DNA of 64,000 nt, taken from the IMG/VR virus record IMGVR_UViG_2609460125_000009. One strand, given 5' to 3'. A program made the translations under genes and the position numbers. This DNA is from a virus (Duplodnaviria; Heunggongvirae; Uroviricota; Caudoviricetes). Numbering within the stretch: position 1 is the first letter of the stretch; every line of letters begins with the position of its first letter. Positions 1-56,541 of this stretch are shown piece by piece. The notes under the pieces were generated by a model. It searched no databases. It saw only the letters and a list, made by a program, of their open reading frames with translations, and had not been told where the DNA came from.

Positions 1-972
1 AGCCTGCGTTACTACTACACTGCGAAACTCTCTTCGCGCATTGATGATATCGATCTCAACCTGGAGGATTTCGTTCAGCGTGTGAATGCCGATATCGTGA
101 ACAAAGTGGTTAACCTGGCGTCCCGTAACGCTGGCTTTATCAATAAGCGTTTTGACGGTGTGCTGGCAAGCGAGCTGGCTGACCCGCAGTTGTACAAAAC
201 CTTCACTGATGCCGCTGAAGTGATTGGTGAAGCGTGGGAAAGCCGCGAATTTGGTAAAGCTATCCGTGAAATCATGGCACTGGCTGACCTGGCTAACCGC
301 TATGTCGACGAGCAGGCTCCTTGGGTAGTCGCAAAACAGGAAGGTCGCGATGCTGACCTGCAGGCGATTTGCTCAATGGGCATCAACCTGTTCCGCGTGC
401 TGATGACTTACCTGAAACCGGTACTGCCGAAACTGACAGAACGTGCGGAAGCATTCCTGAATACGGAACTGACCTGGGATGGCATCCAGCAACCGCTGCT
501 GGGCCATAAAGTGAATCCGTTCAAAGCACTGTATAACCGTATCGACATGAAACAGGTGGAAGCATTGGTGGAAGCGTCTAAAGAAGAAGTGAAAGCTACT
601 ACCGCGCCAGTTACTGGCCCGCTGGCAGACGACCCGATTCAGGAAACCATCACCTTTGACGACTTTGCCAAAGTTGACCTGCGCGTGGCACTGATCGAAA
701 ACGCAGAGTTTGTTGAAGGTTCTGACAAACTGCTGCGCCTGACGCTGGATCTCGGCGGTGAAAAACGCAATGTCTTCTCAGGCATCCGTTCTGCTTATCC
801 AGACCCACAGGCACTGATTGGTCGTCACACCATTATGGTGGCTAACCTGGCTCCGCGTAAGATGCGCTTCGGCATCTCCGAAGGTATGGTGATGGCTGCT
901 GGCCCCGGCGGGAAAGATATCTTCCTGTTAAGCCCGGATGCTGGTGCTAAACCTGGCCACCAGGTTAAGTAA
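1..972 (+). CDS. metG: methionyl-tRNA synthetase, C-terminal part (5' end outside window)
   Basis: Frame open from base 1; translation matches the MetRS C-terminal anticodon-binding and tRNA-binding region as recalled (…[47 protein letters not shown]…); stop at 970-972. Confidence 0.9.
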
Positions 973-991
973 TTAAGCAACCTCTGTTCGC

Positions 992-1018
992 AATGCCCGG
1001 CAACACGCTGGGCATTTT
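992..1018 (+). terminator. rho-independent terminator after metG
   Basis: ATGCCC…GGGCAT stem followed by TTTT. Confidence 0.6.
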
Positions 1019-1055
1019 CATATAGACACAATCCCTCCTGATTTACACAAGCCCT

Positions 1056-1070
1056 AAAACAATTTGTTTT
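1056..1070. promoter_or_regulatory. palindromic operator-like site AAAACAA-T-TTGTTTT (motif family 1)
   Basis: Perfect inverted repeat; first occurrence marks the left edge of element-specific sequence. Confidence 0.5.
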
Positions 1071-1105
1071 CTATCTTTTGTTGATTGAGATAATAAGCCA
1101 CATAA

Positions 1106-1121
1106 GAAAACAAATTGTTTC
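1106..1121. promoter_or_regulatory. motif family 1 site GAAAACAAATTGTTTC
   Basis: Palindrome 13 bp upstream of the ATG at 1134, overlapping the RBS region. Confidence 0.55.
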
Positions 1122-1133
1122 GGAGTGGTTGAA

Positions 1134-1433
1134 ATGTTGAACATTACCCAAGCCTACCAGGTGGCATTGATCAGTTCATCTCATACATCAGAGGAAGATG
1201 CTCGCCGATTCATGATCGCAAGCAATGAGCTGGATTGGGTTTCACAAATTGATGGCGGTTGTATTGTCCACGCCGGGTTACAGGATGATGTCTGGAAAGA
1301 CGACTTGCGTCGATATGGTATATCCGAAGGCGCGATTGCTAACATTCAGAAAGTACTTGATGTAGGCTTTGACTCTGTACATTTTGATTGTGGTGCGCCG
1401 ATCGTTGAAGGGCTTGAGTGCTGGTGTTGGTAG
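1134..1433 (+). CDS. hypothetical early protein
   Basis: ORF with GGAG RBS; ATG 1134 preferred over the GTG at 1125; family 1 operator upstream. Confidence 0.45.
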   Translation: MLNITQAYQVALISSSHTSEEDARRFMIASNELDWVSQIDGGCIVHAGLQDDVWKDDLRRYGISEGAIANIQKVLDVGFDSVHFDCGAPIVEGLECWCW

Positions 1434-1564
1434 AGTGTATAAGCGGATCAATGAGTTACGGAAACAGTTAATAATGAGGAGCTTGTAATAAGCTGTATAC
1501 CCTAGAAAAGCTAGACTAGGGAATAAAATGACGTGAAACTGGGCGAGACAGTAAATAATTCCGA

Positions 1565-2794
1565 ATGATAATTGAACAAATAACCCCTTGCTCGGAGCTT
1601 GGAATGACTGATACCGCTTTTTCAAAATCGTTACAAAAAGAAGTCGATCCTGAGCAGTACTTGGCGCTAAAGAATTTAGATGACAGCTCGGTTCATGCTA
1701 TTGCCCGTGACGATATCATCTGCCCCATTTGCAAAGTTGGAGGTGGTTCGTTCGTTAGAGCCACTAGGAATGGTGGCTATCACAAGAAGGCGCATTTCAG
1801 ATTTACCGGTGAAGATGGTCAAGGCCATCATCCATCATGTGATTTCTATGGAGATAGACTAACATCTGAGGTGAAGCAGCACCTTGTCTCATTCACAAAA
1901 GATCGAACAAAGTATTCGCAGGTAATACGAAAGCTGGTCTGTGCCGGCATACAGGAAGGGATATTTACTCAAGAAAAAATGTGGCAGATGAGGGAATGGT
2001 TCTTCAATAAGCGAAAGGATTCCACATTTGAAATATGGTTAGAAAGCGAGCATTTAGACTGGCTTTATTATATTAGTGGGTTACGTGATGCATATCTAGC
2101 ATGGACAACTCCTGATATTCTACCTTTCGCGCCCATTCAGGTTACTGTGCCTGGTTTTTCTTGGAAGCGTGCGATTGACAAAGAGGTGCTAAGAGTTCAC
2201 ATCAAGACTCTCCAGCAATTGCGTGAAATTTCAGTCTCACATAGAGACATTGCTGTAATCTTAGAACACATAAACAATAATCGTGACCGCACAATTCTCG
2301 ATCCATCGCATTTGGAGGACGAGATAAGTAAGACCTATAAGCTTACTAGTTTTGTGATGGGCAATTACATTGAGTTTCAGACAAAAACGGTTAGCGACAG
2401 AGCATACGGGGAAGCTAAGTTTCTGGCATTTGCAGCACTTTTGTTGTTCGTGTCAGATTGGGACCTCAACATTGCTATTGGTAAGTTTTCTAAGATTGCC
2501 AGAGTGAAGGAGGTTGATGACATGCTGGCTGGTAATTTCATTGGTCTTAATCCTTACTTCCGATACGACCTGGCTAATGCAGTGAAGAGATTGCAGGATA
2601 ACTGGCCGATTGAATACCAAGAGTTGGAGCATTGGAATGTTGAGAAATCCATGCGTGACGCATATGAAAAGTGGCGTGCGACAGAGCCTGAATTCGCTCC
2701 ACCCCTATTGCCAGACTTGTATATTGCCAAACATGAGAAAGAAGTCGCACAAGACGAGCAAGTCAGGCAGTGGATTAAGAACGGGGATGTTTGA
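1565..2794 (+). CDS. hypothetical protein with N-terminal zinc-ribbon-like Cys/His cluster
   Basis: 409-aa ORF; CPICK…HHPSCDFYG motif; start uncertain (ATG 1604 has a better RBS). Confidence 0.5.
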   Translation: MIIEQITPCSELGMTDTAFSKSLQKEVDPEQYLALKNLDDSSVHAIARDDIICPICKVGGGSFVRATRNGGYHKKAHFRFTGEDGQGHHPSCDFYGDRLTSEVKQHLVSFTKDRTKYSQVIRKLVCAGIQEGIFTQEKMWQMREWFFNKRKDSTFEIWLESEHLDWLYYISGLRDAYLAWTTPDILPFAPIQVTVPGFSWKRAIDKEVLRVHIKTLQQLREISVSHRDIAVILEHINNNRDRTILDPSHLEDEISKTYKLTSFVMGNYIEFQTKTVSDRAYGEAKFLAFAALLLFVSDWDLNIAIGKFSKIARVKEVDDMLAGNFIGLNPYFRYDLANAVKRLQDNWPIEYQELEHWNVEKSMRDAYEKWRATEPEFAPPLLPDLYIAKHEKEVAQDEQVRQWIKNGDV

Positions 2795-2849
2795 GTGTAA
2801 TTAGCTTAATCAATCAGTTGATAATGGCGGTCACAATTTGATTCTTTTC

Positions 2850-3720
2850 TATAAGAATCCGTTGATCGCCACTACTCTTCTTCCATACCTGCAATCACAC
2901 CTTTAAATATCAATAAGTTATAGTTGTTTATACAATCAAGAAAACAACTGAATAACAGATCAACGAAACATCAACGCTTTCACCCGATTTGGTCTAAAAA
3001 ATTGACGTATTCACACATCACTTCTTATACCCGTAATTCTACGCAGCAGACAGCGCCACAGCGTCCAATTTTCACCACAGACGACCCAACACACTACCAA
3101 CAAAAACACACGCTCAAAATCGCTCCCGTTGCGTTACACAACCATATAAACAACTTATTTTCAGGCATAACAAAACAACTAAATAACACACATGCCATTC
3201 CCCAAAACAACCAACCTCTTTATGGCAGGCTACCGAAAAGACCCACCTCTTCTCCCCAGGCTACCGGACAACCAACCTAACTTTCACAGGCAATCCGAAA
3301 ACATTCATACGCGCGATACCCACGACACGCCATTACCCAAACAGCGAAGAAACACCAGAATCACTGAAACCCCAACGAAGCCTGTAACCGCAAGGTTTCT
3401 CTCAATCCCAAAAGACACGAAACATAACAATCACGGGAAACGCCATTACCCAATACACGAATAACTACAAAAGCCTTTCACACACTCCAGACAAACAACT
3501 CAAACACAATAACGAAAGGAATCGCCCACCTGCCATTACTCCATACACGGAGAAGAACAATCACCAAAACGACGAGAACACCCCATAGAAGAACCACCGC
3601 AAAACGAACGAAACCACATACACCGACAGAGAGAACAACACACCCAATTCACAAACAGAAATAGTCGCCGCATAGAACGTTCTGGAAGGGGTGAGCATTA
3701 ACGCCTATAGAGAGGTTGAG
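2850..3720 (+). other. strongly A+C-skewed non-coding region with degenerate direct repeats
   Basis: G and T are scarce on the given strand; no ORF >=60 aa on the opposite strand; repeated GCCATTACCCAA and CAGGCTACCG units. Confidence 0.6.
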
Positions 3721-3787
3721 ACAGATAAAACACGAAGAAAACACAACATGTATAGCGAACAAGACAGGTATGTATAAGTGGGGAGGG

Positions 3788-3811
3788 AAGGAGGGGTGTC
3801 GCCTCCTTTTT
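3788..3811 (+). terminator. terminator-like hairpin
   Basis: AAGGAGG…CCTCCTT stem followed by TTTTT. Confidence 0.4.
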
Positions 3812-3894
3812 CGTATTTATTCAACTCCTGATTTTATCCCCCGTAACACCCCTACGGTCAGCCTTCGATCCATACAGGGAAAAGGTTGCATCCC

Positions 3895-4015
3895 GCTACA
3901 GAAACGGCTGGGTTGCCTTCGGGGAACGGCTGGAGGTTTTCAGGGAAACGGTCGAGTTGCCTGTGTGGATTTCGGGAAAAGGCTCGATGCCGGTTCAGGA
4001 ACGGTGGAGTACCGG
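3895..4015. repeat. iteron-like direct repeats (GGGAAACGGC-type, ~21 bp period)
   Basis: Five tandem units: AGAAACGGCTGG, GGGAACGGCTGG, GGGAAACGGTCG, GGGAAAAGGCTCG, AGGAACGGTGG. Confidence 0.6.
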
Positions 4016-4341
4016 TATAGCGAGAGGGAGAGTTGCGGCTATCCACCTGTAATGTGCGGGAAGAAGAGAGGCGCTCACGTGCAGGCGGACTAACTTACCG
4101 TTGGACTCCCTCTGAATGCCCAGTTACAGCGTAATTGTGCCAGACAGCCAACGGGTCACAATCGATTTCAGTAGGTTTTCGGGGAGATGATTATTCTGCC
4201 CACCAGCCACCTTCGGCCACTAAATCAGAATAATGTAAAAAGTGTTCTCGGTACTGAACCTGAAAACTCACTGCCAAAACCACATTCACCGGAATAAAAT
4301 CCTTTTTCGCCTGTGCGTTATTGCGATAATAACACCATCAA

Positions 4342-4356
4342 GAAAACATGTTGTTT
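4342..4356. promoter_or_regulatory. motif family 1 site GAAAACATGTTGTTT
   Basis: Palindrome downstream of a GATAAT -10-like hexamer and upstream of the 4369 ORF. Confidence 0.5.
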
Positions 4357-4368
4357 AAGGATTGCTTT

Positions 4369-4698
4369 ATGTTTGCAAATATCGACATCAACCAAATCAA
4401 GAAATTAACTCAAAAAGAGTTTGACCAGTTCTATGAGCTGGAAGGTTGGTCTTCCACTCTGATTAATTCAAGATGGGTGCTGGAGCTGATGACTCGTGAT
4501 GATGCACCTGCTTTGATGATCAGCGACCTGGGTGAAGATGCTGACTTTATGGATATGAGCGAATTTTGTGTGGACACATACAACCGCAGCCAGAAGTACT
4601 ACTTCACATGCGATAGCGAAAATGACGTGATTTCTAAGGTCTATCTTCACCTCGTCCAGCATTGGGACGTTCAGGAGTTTCTTGAGGTATTCGCGTAA
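4369..4698 (+). CDS. hypothetical early protein
   Basis: ORF with AAGGA RBS; ATG 4369 preferred because the ATG at 4348 lies inside the operator. Confidence 0.45.
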   Translation: MFANIDINQIKKLTQKEFDQFYELEGWSSTLINSRWVLELMTRDDAPALMISDLGEDADFMDMSEFCVDTYNRSQKYYFTCDSENDVISKVYLHLVQHWDVQEFLEVFA

Positions 4699-4707
4699 TC
4701 CCAACCA

Positions 4708-4733
4708 AAGCCAGCATTGCTGGCTTAATTTCT
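4708..4733 (+). terminator. rho-independent terminator-like hairpin
   Basis: AAGCCAGC…GCTGGCTT stem. Confidence 0.5.
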
Positions 4734-4825
4734 CTATAGCCGCAGGGAAGAACCTGCATATCGCTCATGCACCTGATCATTATGCTTTGTAGCCGTTTTC
4801 TTATTGGTATTATTTACGCCATTGA

Positions 4826-4840
4826 GAAAACAAGTTGTTT
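4826..4840. promoter_or_regulatory. motif family 1 site GAAAACAAGTTGTTT
   Basis: Palindrome immediately upstream of the RBS of the 4852 ORF. Confidence 0.5.
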
Positions 4841-4851
4841 ACGGAGTTGTG

Positions 4852-5163
4852 ATGAAAAAATCATTGGTTCTTGGTCTGGACAAAGACCAGAAGAGAAAAG
4901 AGAAGCCTGCGCTGGTTGCTCAATTAACTTTGCTGGACATCGTTGCCAATGGAACCTCTATTCGTCTGTTCCGTGAAACAGCGGTGTCTTTCGATAAAAA
5001 CACCTTTACTCGTTATGTAATGAATGTTCGTCGCCAGCGTGGAAAAGGCTGGATGGCATTTCAAAGAATGTGGCCGGAACATCAGCTCGAACTGGCTTTG
5101 ATGGAAGTTAACCGCGTGGCCCAGCAAGAAATTCAGAGAGCATCAGTGATGGCAATAGCCTGA
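4852..5163 (+). CDS. hypothetical early protein (basic)
   Basis: ORF with GGAG RBS. Confidence 0.45.
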   Translation: MKKSLVLGLDKDQKRKEKPALVAQLTLLDIVANGTSIRLFRETAVSFDKNTFTRYVMNVRRQRGKGWMAFQRMWPEHQLELALMEVNRVAQQEIQRASVMAIA

Positions 5164-5197
5164 TAATGTGCAAGTGGTAATTAGTCGACAGTACGAC

Positions 5198-5226
5198 AGC
5201 CCCGCCATCCTTACGGGGCTTTTTTG
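5198..5226 (+). terminator. rho-independent terminator
   Basis: AGCCCCG…CGGGGCT stem followed by TTTTTT. Confidence 0.7.
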
Positions 5227-5230
5227 TATT

Positions 5231-5246
5231 GTAAGTACATACTTAC
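5231..5246. promoter_or_regulatory. motif family 2 palindrome GTAAGTACATACTTAC
   Basis: Perfect inverted repeat ~45 bp upstream of the 5290 ORF. Confidence 0.45.
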
Positions 5247-5289
5247 GATCATAGAATATAAAAATAACCAATACACTACGGAGAGTGAA

Positions 5290-5685
5290 ATGACCGTTAA
5301 ACGCGAAAAACTGACAGTTGATGTTTACTATGCCTCTGAAACCGCCGAAGGTAAGAATGTGGCAAAAATCACCGTTGTTACGTACAACACCGAAACTGGT
5401 GCCGAAGTACAGGCCAGTACGATCGTGCGTAAAGGTGATGCCTCCGGCGGCGAGTACGCGACTCAATACCAGTCCATTCTCGATGCAACTGACCCGCTGC
5501 TGCTGAAAATCGAGAACTACTTCCGCCAGGTTGATGAAGAGGTGTTTGAAACCATGATGAATATGGTTAACACCGTATTCGCCTCCAGCCTGAACACCAG
5601 CACCACCTGGATTGGCCAGTACGGTCTGCGCATTACCTCTGGCATTCCTGCCGACACCTTAATCCCTGAAAGCGTATTCGCTTAA
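5290..5685 (+). CDS. hypothetical protein
   Basis: ORF with GGAGAG RBS. Confidence 0.45.
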   Translation: MTVKREKLTVDVYYASETAEGKNVAKITVVTYNTETGAEVQASTIVRKGDASGGEYATQYQSILDATDPLLLKIENYFRQVDEEVFETMMNMVNTVFASSLNTSTTWIGQYGLRITSGIPADTLIPESVFA

Positions 5686-5695
5686 TCCTCTTTAA

Positions 5696-5722
5696 ATGGC
5701 GCGTAAACCGCGCCATTTTATT
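5696..5722 (+). terminator. rho-independent terminator
   Basis: ATGGCGCG…CGCGCCAT stem followed by TTTTATT. Confidence 0.65.
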
Positions 5723-5731
5723 AAGCCCGAT

Positions 5732-5746
5732 AACAATTTGTTTTCT
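5732..5746. promoter_or_regulatory. motif family 1 site AACAATTTGTTTTC
   Basis: Palindrome upstream of the 5803 ORF. Confidence 0.45.
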
Positions 5747-5802
5747 GCCTTATCTGATTTGTGAAAATGATTTCACTGAAGCAACTTAATAAGGAAACCA
5801 TC

Positions 5803-6177
5803 ATGGGACTTGATATCTATATCGAGACACAGCCTAAAAACGATCTGAATAACGAGGCATCCAGAAAGCGGGTTGCTTACTTCCGTAAGTTCAATGCGCT
5901 CGTTGGGTGGATGGAGCGCAACGTAGGTGAAGTCGAAAATTGTGAGCTTTTAGAATTAACGATGAATGACATTTGTTTTCTGAAGGCTCATTTGATGCAC
6001 ATAAACGAAAGTAATTGCGAAGAGTACTTGCCTACCCGGGAAGGTTTTTTCTTCGGCAGTCAGGAGTACGATGAAGGTTACTGGCATGATGTGGGGGAGT
6101 TGAAAGAGCTTGTGGAAGATCTGATTAAGAACCACGACTTTCACAATAACAGACTGACCTTCTGCGCCTGGTGGTAA
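5803..6177 (+). CDS. hypothetical early protein
   Basis: ORF with AAGGAAACC RBS; the longer frame from 5761 would start at GTG. Confidence 0.45.
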   Translation: MGLDIYIETQPKNDLNNEASRKRVAYFRKFNALVGWMERNVGEVENCELLELTMNDICFLKAHLMHINESNCEEYLPTREGFFFGSQEYDEGYWHDVGELKELVEDLIKNHDFHNNRLTFCAWW

Positions 6178-6179
6178 AT

Positions 6180-6323
6180 ATGGGCGATTTCAAGAAACGC
6201 CTGAAGGAGAGAGCCGAGATGGTCAGAAAGCGAAACGCCTCTTCTGTCATCAGATACGCAAGGCAGTTTAGTCGCAACAACAAATCAGTTGAGGAAAAGA
6301 TCCTTAGCGTAATCGGGCGATAA
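6180..6323 (+). CDS. small basic hypothetical protein (47 aa)
   Basis: Short ORF starting 2 nt after the stop of the previous gene; not in the supplied track because <60 aa. Confidence 0.3.
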   Translation: MGDFKKRLKERAEMVRKRNASSVIRYARQFSRNNKSVEEKILSVIGR

Positions 6324-6330
6324 TTATTAA

Positions 6331-6350
6331 GGCCACCAGCATTGGTGGTC
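6331..6350 (+). terminator. terminator-like hairpin GGCCACCAGCATTGGTGGTC
   Basis: Stem-loop without a strong T-run; near-identical copy at 6800. Confidence 0.4.
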
Positions 6351-6478
6351 TTAAATGACTTTTAATAACCGAAGGTTAGTTTGAAACCTGGCTATCAACT
6401 TCCAGAACCTTTCTTGTGTATTCAGCCTGTATTAACTTCTTTTATGCCTTATCTACACTGCGATAATTACACCAACAA

Positions 6479-6493
6479 GAAAACAACATGTTT
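6479..6493. promoter_or_regulatory. motif family 1 site GAAAACAACATGTTT
   Basis: Preceded by the conserved CGATAATTACACCAACAA promoter-like block. Confidence 0.5.
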
Positions 6494-6506
6494 ACGCAGT
6501 GAGGAT

Positions 6507-6794
6507 ATGCTCATGACTGATTTCACCATTACCCCTAAAGCACAAAATGTATTCCTTGAATCATGGCTGGACTTGCCGGAAACAGAACAGCAAGAAATGG
6601 ATCATGTGGATTATGACGAGCAGGTAAGCACGCGATTCTTCCACTTTGAGGGATGCGTTTACGACATTGCCGACTTCATGCGAGATGACCGCTTCCCTGA
6701 ATGGCACGCAAGCTATCCACTAAACGCCTTTGCCATGCTGATGATCCGTGTGGATGATTCAGGGGATACCATCGACATCGGTCTGCTCCACTAA
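6507..6794 (+). CDS. hypothetical early protein (acidic)
   Basis: ORF with GAGGAT RBS; start at 6507 or 6513. Confidence 0.45.
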   Translation: MLMTDFTITPKAQNVFLESWLDLPETEQQEMDHVDYDEQVSTRFFHFEGCVYDIADFMRDDRFPEWHASYPLNAFAMLMIRVDDSGDTIDIGLLH

Positions 6795-6799
6795 AGATT

Positions 6800-6823
6800 A
6801 AGGCCACCAATGCTGGTGGCCTT
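6800..6823 (+). terminator. terminator-like hairpin AAGGCCACCAATGCTGGTGGCCTT
   Basis: Perfect stem; near-identical to the 6331 hairpin. Confidence 0.45.
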
Positions 6824-6963
6824 AAATGACCATCCTGTTTCCCGCAGGCTAAAAACACCAACCTCTTACCTCCAGGCAACCGACAAACCCACCTGTTCCC
6901 GTCCGGCTACCGCAACTTTCCACTTTGACGCCTTATTCGTACAACGATAATTAACACCAACAA

Positions 6964-6977
6964 GAAAACAATTTGTT
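6964..6977. promoter_or_regulatory. motif family 1 site GAAAACAATTTGTT
   Basis: Preceded by the CGATAATTAACACCAACAA block. Confidence 0.5.
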
Positions 6978-6998
6978 ATTTACGATAAGGAATTAATC

Positions 6999-7481
6999 AT
7001 GAATTTTATCGCTACTGTAAACGCACCCGCACATGGCAATATCGCTGTAACGTTCTCTGACATTGAAAAACGAGTACTTGGTGCATGGCGCGACAATGAG
7101 ACGGTAGAACTGTCAGCACAAGAAAAATGCATTATTGCACGCGACATCATTGGCAATCGTCGTTACTCGCGGGTATTTGAGAAAGCATATGTGGTAAATT
7201 CTGGATTCGGAACGTTCGTCTTTCCGGTGCGCTCCGGGCGATTCTGCCAGTCCAAGCTGATTGAGTTCGCTACGCAGATTTCTGTCTGGATTAAAACTCA
7301 ATCGTCGTTCAAATTTTCCGACGATGAAGCAGTATCGCAGGGGATGCGGATCGCCAACAATGCGATTAAATGCAAAAACATTACGTATACCGCTGGCGTT
7401 GATACATGGAAACTGTTTTGCGCTAACTTTATGCTGAATGTATACGCAAGCAACCGCATCCACATCCTTGATGGCGTGTAA
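6999..7481 (+). CDS. hypothetical protein
   Basis: 160-aa ORF with AAGGA RBS. Confidence 0.5.
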   Translation: MNFIATVNAPAHGNIAVTFSDIEKRVLGAWRDNETVELSAQEKCIIARDIIGNRRYSRVFEKAYVVNSGFGTFVFPVRSGRFCQSKLIEFATQISVWIKTQSSFKFSDDEAVSQGMRIANNAIKCKNITYTAGVDTWKLFCANFMLNVYASNRIHILDGV

Positions 7482-7494
7482 CTGAGAAGAGGGC

Positions 7495-7620
7495 CAGAAA
7501 CGGCCCTTTCTCTACAGCCACCAGCTGCCGCAGGGAAATTTTCAGAAACGGCGAGGAACGTATTCATGAGCCGACGGGAAACGGCCAGGATTTTTTCGGG
7601 AAACGGCTGCATTCGCCTTT
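7495..7620. repeat. second iteron-like array (AGAAACGGCC / GGGAAACGGC units)
   Basis: Four or more direct repeats of the same core as the 3895-4015 array. Confidence 0.55.
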
Positions 7621-7725
7621 ATATAGAAAAAACATCGGGAAGCTGGTGGAATCCAACCAGCGGTTGTCGGACAGGTGAGCGGGGAAAATCATGATGACTT
7701 TCGTCGCCTGAGACATCCAGATTTC

Positions 7726-7780
7726 TTTCGTAGCGTAATCACATATGTGATTAAGTGGTGTGATTATGTGAAAAATCACG
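7726..7780. promoter_or_regulatory. cluster of perfect palindromes (TAATCACATATGTGATTA; ATTATGTG-N12-CACATAAT)
   Basis: Inverted repeats in a convergent intergenic region. Confidence 0.4.
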
Positions 7781-8071
7781 CGCACATAATACGAGAGCGG
7801 ATACGGAACAAAACAAAATGCCGATCCGCGCCGACAATTAAACGCGGATCACATAGCAAGAATAAAAGCCAATGATTAACCATACACCATAACGCAATAT
7901 AACGCGATTTAAGCGCGTTAATGCGCTAAGTAATGGGTATGTACTGGTAAGGATATAAAAGCGCGTCTATGGCGTTATTTTGGCGCTTATTTTTATGTTG
8001 TTGGTGTGAGTCAAAGACAATAAAAAACGCGCTAATGATGGCGCGTTATGGTGGGAGTATTGGAAACGAAA

Positions 8072-8589: not shown

Positions 8590-8600
8590 GATTCCATTAA

Positions 8601-9251
8601 TTACGCTTTGAAAGCATCAGCTAAATAATTGTAGAAATCATTTTTAATGAAGCGATATTGCTGAGTACCAGCTTTCGCACTCCCAGCTCCTTTGACTTTT
8701 TCAACAAGTCCAAGACGTTCGCAAAGATTGATCAACTGGTTGGCTTGAGTATAGCCAGCGTCCAATTTAATTTCACACGCTTTTTTAGCTTCATTCATTA
8801 AATCGAAAACAGCGCCATTGGTGAACGTGTCGATCTCGTCGTTAATCATATCGATTAAAGCGAATACACGAGATCCTGACATATCAGCGATGGAATAAAC
8901 GCATTTACCAGATTTAATTGATTTAACCAGATAAACCAGTTTTTCCAGAGAATAACTATTAGTCATTGCATCACGGAAAAATACTTCTGGCGCTTGTTTG
9001 CTTGCTTTAATCGCATAGTAGAAAACAGAGCATAATTTTTCGTCTTCTACTGCGTTTACGACGTTGTTGATGAAGTAAGCAAGTTTAGTGGTCGCAGCTT
9101 GCATATTTGCTTTGTCTGCTTTAGTGTGCGTACCATTTTTATAATGTTCGTTATATGTTTGAGTTGCCAGATCTGCTTTTTCGCGCAGCTCGTCGGATAC
9201 AATAGATGCAGCTTCAATGATGGACTTTTTAGAAATGATAATGTTAGCCAT
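8601..9251 (-). CDS. hypothetical protein (216 aa), no recognisable motif
   Basis: First gene of an AT-rich operon; long AT-rich promoter region upstream (9252-9500). Confidence 0.5.
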   Translation of the reverse strand: MANIIISKKSIIEAASIVSDELREKADLATQTYNEHYKNGTHTKADKANMQAATTKLAYFINNVVNAVEDEKLCSVFYYAIKASKQAPEVFFRDAMTNSYSLEKLVYLVKSIKSGKCVYSIADMSGSRVFALIDMINDEIDTFTNGAVFDLMNEAKKACEIKLDAGYTQANQLINLCERLGLVEKVKGAGSAKAGTQQYRFIKNDFYNYLADAFKA

Positions 9252-9502
9252 GATAATTTTTCCTTATGTAAATTTAAAATTTATTGTCGTTAGCGTCTTC
9301 GCTTTCGACGAGTTCAATTATCGATACGCGAAAAAAGATTGCAAGTGTTTTTTTTAAATTTTTTGCAGGGATGAAAGTCCTAGAAATAAAAGCGAGATCG
9401 TCGAAGGTGTTCCCTAAATAAATAATCAATTCGGGCTTTTAACCTTATATATATTTAGGTTATTTGATTTGTAGATATAAAGAAGTGATGTGAAAAATAA
9501 TA

Positions 9503-9524
9503 ACCGGACTTAGCCGGTTATTAA
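9503..9524 (-). terminator. hairpin AATAACCGG…CCGGTTATT
   Basis: Stem-loop downstream of the 9535 gene. Confidence 0.45.
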
Positions 9525-9534
9525 CCTTATAGAT

Positions 9535-9843
9535 TTATTGAACAGACTCTACAGCCTTACGATTGGTGTCAAATAGCGCATCAACGAACTGTGCCGATGA
9601 CTCGCTAGATTCGCAATCCAACATTGCCCGTTCTTCATTTGCCACTTTCTTACACAGTTCCACATTCTCACCTATCGCTTTTCCTGCTTTTACGGCTGCC
9701 GAAAATTGATACATGCAAACTGATACATTCTGAGACGTTGAGCACACGTCATTCATCAGCGACTGAATGACAGGCTTATAGTCCATTGCATTTGCCGCAA
9801 CTGAGCAAAGTAAAAATAATGGTGGTAACAATATCGATTTCAT
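9535..9843 (-). CDS. secreted cysteine-rich small protein
   Basis: N-terminal hydrophobic signal-like segment (MKSILLPPLFLLCSVAANA); six Cys residues. Confidence 0.5.
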   Translation of the reverse strand: MKSILLPPLFLLCSVAANAMDYKPVIQSLMNDVCSTSQNVSVCMYQFSAAVKAGKAIGENVELCKKVANEERAMLDCESSESSAQFVDALFDTNRKAVESVQ

Positions 9844-56294: not shown

Positions 56295-56369
56295 GATGGT
56301 GTAGCTCAGCGGTAGAGCAGTTGGCTGTTAACCAACTGGTCGGTGGTTCGAATCCACCCACCATCGCCA
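56295..56369 (+). tRNA. tRNA-Asn (anticodon GTT)
   Basis: Hand-folded cloverleaf: acceptor GATGGTG/CACCATC, anticodon loop CTGTTAA, T-loop TTCGAAT, 3' CCA encoded. Confidence 0.8.
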
Positions 56370-56374
56370 ATTTA

Positions 56375-56461
56375 GGGGAGTTAGTCCGTAGAGGTAGCGG
56401 GGTAGACTGTAAATCTACTGTCATTGCGACTCGGGTGGTTCGACTCCATCACTCCCCACCA
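56375..56461 (+). tRNA. tRNA-Tyr (anticodon GTA), long variable arm
   Basis: Acceptor GGGGAGT/ACTCCCC, anticodon stem-loop GTAGA-CTGTAAA-TCTAC, long variable arm; D-arm pairing is atypical. Confidence 0.6.
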
Positions 56462-56465
56462 AATT

Positions 56466-56541
56466 GCCGGTTTAGCTCAGTTGGTAGAGCGCCTGCCTTG
56501 TAAGCAGGATGTCAGCGGTTCGATCCCGTTAACCGGCACCA
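56466..56541 (+). tRNA. tRNA-Thr (anticodon TGT)
   Basis: Acceptor GCCGGTT/AACCGGC, D-arm GCTC-AGTTGGTA-GAGC, anticodon loop CTTGTAA, T-loop TTCGATC. Confidence 0.8.

Follow-up and report, generated by a model that had tools for sequence, protein, structure and literature searches.

The 64,000-nucleotide stretch of viral DNA analysed here (the window; IMG/VR record IMGVR_UViG_2609460125_000009, Caudoviricetes) contains a gene, at 1604–2794 on the + strand, whose product belongs to a zinc-finger family that is new to annotation and structural databases and has an all-alpha domain without known fold relative. The gene is dispensable cargo and not backbone: it occupies an internal slot, swapped by recombination, of an element that, to judge from its matches, is a circular SSU5-like phage-plasmid of ~110 kb, and members of its family are found beside Gabija, Tmn, SIR2-HerA and further immune systems. 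The reading that we rank first, and which we regard as plausible rather than probable, is that the gene encodes a stand-alone conflict protein, active in immunity or exclusion and expressed from the resident element. Clinical E. coli, Shigella, Klebsiella and Salmonella Typhi commonly carry phage-plasmids of the SSU5/pHCM2 type, most of whose accessory genes are unannotated; the family is presented as a solid candidate for experimental testing, not yet as a discovery.

The open reading frame (ORF) listed in the window at 1565–2794 (+ strand, 409 codons) certainly encodes a real gene, since full-length homologues fall into 34 clusters at 90% identity (close relatives) and 176 representatives at 50% identity, and since the predicted metal ligands are invariant. 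An earlier note on this DNA, prepared from the letters alone, had taken the gene to begin at 1565; the ORF stands, whereas the start is most likely the ATG at 1604, giving a product of 396 aa. It is there that all homologues align, with the N-terminus MTxTA[YF]S beginning at the M of this ATG, RefSeq annotates a 396-aa product (WP_021533330.1) in identical plasmids, and a putative ribosome-binding site, GGAG, can be read 6 nt 5′ of the ATG (1594–1597, + strand). A start at 1565 would add 13 codons, none of them conserved. The preferred coding sequence is thus 1604–2794 (396 aa plus stop), and residue numbering throughout counts from the M at 1604. A sigma-70-like promoter candidate, GAGACA-16-GATAAT, lies at 1545–1572 on the + strand; it comes from a consensus scan only and is weak, scoring 9/12 to consensus in a region that has fewer such sites than shuffles. 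No terminator was found directly 3′ of ORF 1604–2794.

A profile was run exhaustively against 1.84 billion representatives clustered at 50% identity and returned 176 proteins at E ≤ 0.001, of which 82 at E ≤ 1e-30; nearly all of the 176 are 360–400 aa long and match the profile over its full length, and domain fusions are absent. Conservation was judged on an alignment of 88 members that are 20–78% identical to the window protein. C40, C43, H75 and C79 (codons 1721–1723, 1730–1732, 1826–1828 and 1838–1840, + strand) are invariant in 88 of 88, forming a two-knuckle Cys/His ligand set and bearing out the N-terminal cluster, CPICK…AHFRF…HHPSC, to which the earlier note had drawn attention. H64 and H76, on the other hand, are not invariant, and H64 (the histidine of AHFRF) is so often replaced by Y, C, T or S that it can be neither catalytic nor a ligand. 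Conserved at ≥90% are E13, Q18, D37, F65, F67, R130, W132, A275, L279, L281, W286, A291, G310, N311, G314 and P317.

The AlphaFold2 model built with a deep alignment has a predicted local distance difference test score (pLDDT) of 92.4 and a predicted template modelling score of 0.87, and consists of an N-terminal beta-hairpin and helix, followed by a zinc-ribbon-like module up to approximately residue 100 and by an all-alpha domain spanning residues 103–392. According to alignment and model, the N-terminal domain (residues 1–100; 1604–1903, + strand) thus combines a beta-hairpin, with the signature MTxTA[YF]S..E.D..Q, and a CCHC zinc-ribbon-like module in which four beta-strands separate the two ligand pairs, whereas the near-invariant residues of the C-terminal domain (1910–2779, + strand) are R130-x-W132, A275/L279/L281/W286/A291 and the loop G310-N311-x-x-G314-L-N-P317. 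The overall charge in the family is near neutral, with a median isoelectric point (pI) of 7.6.

The statement that some 300 aa of the protein carry no assignable motif has held up in every collection searched. Neither Pfam nor PADLOC gave a match for the window protein or any of the 88 members, and NCBIfam gave none for the window protein; in PHROGs, where only the window protein was searched, the sole family match is phrog_12525, full-length with E = 7e-210, which is the same family and carries no functional annotation. Sequence and profile searches of the PDB yielded nothing beyond marginal profile matches to the eIF5/eIF2-beta zinc ribbons (E = 0.055–0.26), Foldseek found no match in BFVD, and there was no fold similarity to any solved structure. 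In the searchable literature, neither the accession nor the name of the family led to a description of it. None of these searches brought up clear homology to a conserved protein of phage replication or regulation, which the earlier note had named as the finding that would speak against its view.

The zinc module resembles the CoiA_N finger (PF25164) and the C4 ribbons of eIF5/eIF2-beta in having a CPxC knuckle, beta-strands, an “HF[RA]x” strand and a second His/Cys pair; it differs from them in that the ligands are CCHC, with the His placed 10–11 residues after the HFRF strand, and from CoiA also in that the family is devoid of the CoiA nuclease domain. When nine diverse N-termini were examined with HMMER, CoiA_N gave no match at E ≤ 10, which led to its rejection, and no Pfam zinc-ribbon or CoiA_N model reached E = 0.01. 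Three further identities were considered and discarded: an HNH or His-Me finger nuclease, as the candidate strand histidine H64 is not conserved and neither an HNH Pfam match nor a fold match was found; a HEPN protein, there being no Rx4-6H motif and no fold match; and a pore-former, as the single hydrophobic helix (274–292, Kyte-Doolittle 1.7) is buried in a core of pLDDT 98. A side observation concerns a Salinivibrio plasmid (locus L014; L numbers designate the loci compared), where a T5orf172/HTH_7 gene (8593–9744) lies immediately upstream of a distant family member and its product begins with a CoiA_N-like finger (CPFC…AAHFRH…C, E = 2.7e-4) whose spacing is very similar to that of the family finger; this neighbour hints that the zinc module may be common to different mobile-element proteins.

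The gene had been placed by the earlier note at a chromosomal edge of the element, next to a metG junction, and this placement has to be abandoned. In complete E. coli genomes region 1000–4000 finds its match at 250 places, each of them on plasmids of ~105–115 kb and none chromosomal, and it also matches the SSU5-like phage-plasmids Cyrano, CMS-2020a and PhiR41_1; the metG segment (1–1000) is 99.9% identical to plasmid-borne copies (220 plasmid places) as against 92–93% to the E. coli chromosomal metG, with the chromosomal match ending at the stop codon; and the order apbC, metG, DUF5983 gene, slot is internal in complete circular plasmids and in phage Cyrano. Taken together, these three facts place the zinc-finger gene inside the phage-plasmid, and the window metG is a diverged housekeeping paralogue captured as phage-plasmid cargo, and not a chromosomal flank. 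The apbC–metG pair is itself carried by the phage-plasmid, with metG at 1–972 of the window and the upstream part seen in the relative L001 (5682–8973); SSU5 and pHCM2 have no such metG copy at the corresponding position. Since metG is cargo of a circular phage-plasmid, the argument that element termini carry cargo does not apply; that the zinc-finger gene is cargo nevertheless stands, on the different ground of the polymorphic slot in which it resides.

This slot holds an accessory cassette of 1.385 kb (1433–2817), absent or replaced in otherwise collinear phage-plasmids, of which the zinc-finger gene is the sole ORF and within which the promoter candidate also falls. Homology to Cyrano and to the relatives L027, L028 and L029 ends at 1432 and restarts at 2807–2818. 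Between these borders L028 is empty (~15–23 nt between flanks), L027 has two genes of 61 and 186 aa, Cyrano has the 245-aa CYRAN_102, and L029 has shorter gene sets plus an upstream DUF1380 gene; the cassette accordingly has discrete borders, an empty site and at least three alternative contents in collinear genomes. Presence or absence across related elements, one of the checks that the earlier note had called for, proved to be variable, only 36 of the 243 E. coli plasmids having the slot flanks carrying the gene. Cyrano, from which the gene is absent, is held at 5.5 copies per cell and produces virions (PMC9928086), so that the gene is dispensable for both replication and morphogenesis. CYRAN_102 is among the morons expressed in lysogeny and is transcribed at six times the local background (PMC9928086), so that the slot is transcribed while the element persists as a plasmid.

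Outside E. coli the situation is different. Orthologues are found at the corresponding position in SSU5 (57% identical protein), in pHCM2 of S. Typhi (87.6%) and in elements of Klebsiella, Enterobacter, Kluyvera and Cronobacter, and a direct comparison of four of these (SSU5, pHCM2, Klebsiella, Kluyvera) shows the orthologue followed in each case by the same ~1.4-kb unannotated tract. This conserved position suggests that the gene was present in the ancestor of the SSU5 group and was subsequently replaced or lost in most E. coli lineages.

The constancy of this neighbourhood brings in the possibility that the protein is associated with replication or an origin, acting on the adjacent A+C-rich tract and iteron-like repeats. 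Gene, tract and short-repeat cluster are syntenic in SSU5, pHCM2 and the Klebsiella and Kluyvera elements, and GGRAAMGG repeats do cluster at 3878–3982; yet ~85% of the E. coli elements keep tract and repeats without the gene, and Cyrano, which is one of the elements so constituted, replicates and forms virions. Furthermore, no such tract lies beside the homologues on chromosomes, IncX1 plasmids and prophages, and the protein has no similarity to Rep, primase or helicase-loader families. Dispensability nearly excludes a role of this kind, which we consider very improbable; in its strict form, that of a replication initiator or essential regulator, it was rejected on account of the gene's absence from ~85% of the E. 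coli relatives and from Cyrano and of the lack of Rep, primase or repressor homology.

The relatives are distributed over Enterobacterales, Pseudomonas, Shewanella, Salinivibrio, Acinetobacter, Ralstonia, Burkholderia and rhizobia, and their carriers are prophages, plasmids, integrative islands and chromosomal variable spots; among 50,697 phage records the family occurs only in SSU5-type phage-plasmids and in no virulent phage. In chromosomes of Pectobacterium brasiliense the insertion between ychF and a transporter gene comprises the ORF only (window 1593–2788, 75% nt identity), from which it can be concluded that the ORF moves alone, and in several species of Shewanella the homologue occupies a variable spot beside the hut operon. 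In a Klebsiella lambdoid prophage it lies in the nin region, between the replication genes and Q, adjoining a SocA/Panacea gene and a pyocin S/immunity pair, while in IncX1 plasmids it is found between dqlB and hns and adjoins an AbiD fragment or a NACHT protein.

Relatives lie repeatedly within a few kb of known defence genes in unrelated genomes: with Tmn (E = 3.5e-73) and an Mrr nuclease in an island of Pseudomonas syringae, with PDC-S06 (E = 7e-156) on a Yersinia plasmid, near STK_OB, SIR2-HerA and PIN in the metagenomic island L033, where a RES protein ends 5 nt upstream, and with SspD on a marine contig. Another relative lies in a DUF3987/MobA integrative element together with a DUF4411-M78 pair and a giant helicase. 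No conserved partner gene was seen among the first 10 loci compared, and the only neighbours recurring across several metagenomic lineages are the Gabija genes, integrase-like genes (tyrosine-recombinase-like) and two families without assignment (F3 and F4). A side observation is that in two lineages a PDC-S31 gene (PADLOC E = 3e-14) lies ~25 nt downstream of the zinc-finger gene on the same strand (L085 9159–9791; L094 and L095 9159–9806; L105 4645–5292), an arrangement in which the two may constitute a two-gene unit.

Lone chromosomal occurrence, where only the host can benefit, the absence of the family from all virulent phages, and the fact that the phage-plasmid slot is expressed in lysogeny are the reasons for ranking stand-alone defence first. 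We infer both the defence function and every mechanistic step by which it would be exercised. The zinc-finger protein would protect the host, and hence the element, against other phages or mobile DNA; the zinc module would recognise a nucleic-acid feature or an invader protein, and the helical domain would provide the output or interaction site through the conserved R130/W132 and GN..GLNP surfaces, acting non-enzymatically, by sequestration or blocking, or cooperating with neighbouring nuclease-helicase immunity such as Gabija. The closest parallels are lysogeny morons and defence hotspots, for instance the lambdoid nin region and the cargo slots of P4-like satellites: here too a single-ORF cassette with sharp borders is present, absent or replaced, the same slot is transcribed in lysogeny in Cyrano, and homologues occur in the Klebsiella nin region and in a DUF3987-type integrative element. 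The parallel is incomplete: in SSU5 relatives outside E. coli the gene keeps its synteny and has the look of an ancestral gene, not of a recent acquisition.

The recurrence of Gabija beside the family deserves separate consideration. A metagenome scan with a distant subfamily provided 80 loci, whose neighbours within 6 kb were clustered on the basis of crude ORF calls; Gabija was counted over 61 loci, which reduce to 30 lineages on grouping the zinc-finger proteins at 80% identity. Of the neighbour families, the two most frequent are Gabija components, the AAA_15 plus OLD-TOPRIM neighbour being GajA by PADLOC (E = 4e-279, 7e-197) and the UvrD-like helicase neighbour GajB (E = 1.5e-250, 2e-161), and a Gabija pair or remnant lies at ≤6 kb from the zinc-finger gene in 19 of the 61 loci, 8 of the 30 lineages and at least five arrangements. 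In L059 the zinc-finger gene and Gabija are divergent and 127 nt apart; in L065 they are convergent and 43 nt apart; in the L118 group the zinc-finger gene precedes GajA, GajB and a Cap4-like/AAA/SEC-C protein; in L112, L123 and L130 it follows GajA, GajB and one other gene; and in the L062 group the order is integrase, YhcG, zinc-finger gene, two further genes and then GajB and GajA in reverse orientation. Since the Gabija subtypes are just 24–36% identical between most groups, the pairing must have arisen several times. In two pairs of groups the divergence runs in parallel, with 70% identity of the zinc-finger proteins vs. 55% of GajB in one case and 50% vs. 45/52% of GajB/GajA in the other.

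The similarity between the family and Gabija, which consists of the OLD-family ATPase-TOPRIM nuclease GajA and the UvrD-like helicase GajB, is one of physical linkage, sometimes at 43–250 nt, and of partly parallel divergence, the zinc-finger protein being homologous to neither component; it is likewise unrelated to the “GajC” of type II Gabija, which is MazF-like (PMC13069673). That the protein is an obligate Gabija component was rejected, because orientation and spacing vary and because Gabija is absent beside close relatives (L057, L058, L060, L067, L069, L101, L104 and L108) as well as from the window and all phage-plasmid copies. The L118-type protein encoded downstream of the zinc-finger, GajA and GajB genes (L118 6757–9555; also L125, L128 and L133) is 930–1100 aa long and gave no PADLOC match; it begins with a Cap4-nuclease-like region, contains an AAA_22 ATPase and has a SEC-C motif at its C-terminus, and may be another uncharacterised island gene. 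A more far-reaching version of the defence reading, correspondingly more doubtful, would have the family constitute a structurally new single-protein immune module, made of a CCHC zinc sensor and a novel helical domain, that stands alone in mobile elements, has been repeatedly recruited beside Gabija through cooperation (synergy or activation control), and serves as a lysogenic-conversion defence gene in SSU5/pHCM2-type elements, S. Typhi pHCM2 included.

The same adjacency in variable orientation would also suit a modulator, that is a counter-defence or self-protection factor which blunts host immunity or stops a Gabija-like system from attacking the element's replication intermediates. This explanation, which we rank second and regard as unlikely, could draw on the overwhelming carriage by mobile elements, on the integrase-like genes recurring nearby, on the flanking DUF5983 and DUF1380 genes, whose kind is familiar from anti-restriction and leading-region sets, and on the lack of an enzymatic motif, common to many inhibitor proteins; nevertheless, a counter-defence gene would be expected to have a clear beneficiary, and there is none where the gene sits alone in the chromosomes of Pectobacterium and Shewanella, outside recognisable mobile DNA. 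Its absence from the virulent phages among the records searched counts equally against such a role, as does the absence of fold similarity to solved structures, a set that should include the complex of the Gabija inhibitor Gad1 (PMC10781630), and the anti-defence models of DefenseFinder were without match in the Salmonella SSU5-type elements.

The divergent locus L059, with its shared intergenic region of 127 nt, raises instead the question of a DNA-binding regulator, controlling either neighbouring island genes or the lysogeny/lysis or early genes of the phage-plasmid. Regulators tied to many defence systems are a known kind (BrxR/WYL family), zinc-ribbon N-domains are common among DNA-binding proteins, and the surroundings of the gene in the phage-plasmid, in the early/accessory region, include small Ea-like genes, with repressor-like genes nearby. 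However, the 290-aa domain contains neither a helix-turn-helix nor a winged helix-turn-helix or other known DNA-binding fold, the charge and pI of the family are close to neutral, neighbours and orientations vary from locus to locus, some pairs even being convergent at a distance of 43 nt, the ORF is transferred free of flanking DNA, and the life cycle of Cyrano does not need it. Regulation, ranked third, is therefore rather improbable.

Several observations weigh against stand-alone defence itself. The protein shows neither a catalytic motif nor a transmembrane segment or known effector domain, and hence no obvious way to stop a phage. Against the 5,027 models of PADLOC-DB v2.0.0 the best values (E = 0.002–0.008) are those of single members to unrelated models. 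Of the earlier suggestion of defence-type cargo, cargo status and the residence of relatives in defence-rich islands are supported. PADLOC likewise gave no match for the alternative E. coli slot occupants, none of which is a known defence gene, and in pHCM2-type plasmids having the 87.6% identical copy the use of DefenseFinder by others detected no defence system, a result that shows the gene to be unrecognised and is not proof of inactivity. The pairing of gene and tract in SSU5, pHCM2, Klebsiella and Kluyvera looks like the synteny of an old resident more than like a fast-turnover defence cassette. Finally, the neighbourhood counts derive from crude ORF calls in 30 lineages with no formal background model, and residence near defence genes also fits regulators and counter-defence genes.

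What has been gained is the definition of one hypothetical protein as the product of a 1.4-kb cassette whose borders are known and which is naturally present in some elements and absent from others, and of its family (~176 sequence clusters) as one having four predicted metal ligands and a confident model that lacks a known fold relative. Should the gene prove to act in defence or as a partner of Gabija, a new protein fold would enter bacterial immunity, and part of what cryptic phage-plasmids contribute to their hosts would be explained; should it lack such activity, the recurrent linkage to Gabija still calls for an explanation.

On the left the slot is flanked by a DUF5983-family gene (phrog_5003; 1134–1433, + strand), whose stop codon is the left slot border according to family match and alignments and beside which a DUF1380 gene has been added in some E. 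coli relatives (L029 433–675). Both families are small and uncharacterised, and are of a kind met in anti-restriction gene sets, prophage-like islands and plasmid leading regions. The right border, defined by alignments, is the conserved segment TTGATAATGGCGGTCACAATTTGATTCTTTTCTATAAGAATCCGTTGATCGCC (2818–2873), which contains a 7-bp inverted repeat (GATTCTT/AAGAATC); its 57 nt hold three TTGAT motifs, and it is ~80% conserved just 3′ of the homologues in Pantoea/Enterobacteriaceae chromosomal contigs (L011, L012) and in a Klebsiella plasmid (L037). This segment may be a site of recombination or regulation, either moving together with the zinc-finger gene or targeting it. Far from the slot, three adjacent tRNA genes lie on the + strand at 56295–56538.

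The A+C-skewed region reported downstream of the gene is real, and so is a cluster of short, iteron-like repeats. The tract at 2850–3750 comprises ~900 nt of non-coding DNA that is G-poor on the + strand (A 39%, C 30%, G 13%, T 17%), with a GC skew reaching −0.51, and is 65–78% identical at the nt level in the SSU5, pHCM2, Kluyvera and Klebsiella elements; like the short-repeat cluster, it persists in elements without the zinc-finger gene. The tract contains no tandem repeat and has no Rfam match, Rfam having found nothing near the zinc-finger gene either on 1–8000 (E-value mode) or on the whole window; it may correspond to a long unstructured transcript. Directly after it, on the + strand at 3785–3812, a strong intrinsic-terminator-like hairpin, GGAGGGGTGTCGCCTCC, is followed by a T-run, which suggests that the tract is transcribed rightward and that transcription is ended there. 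Further downstream, within a G-rich segment (3870–4030), the iteron-like motif GGRAAMGG occurs four times in 105 nt (at 3878, 3922, 3944 and 3975; cluster 3878–3982) vs. 13 times in the whole 64 kb, accompanied by near-copies; together with D2 (3877–3907/3974–4004) this cluster may constitute an origin or a protein-binding array.

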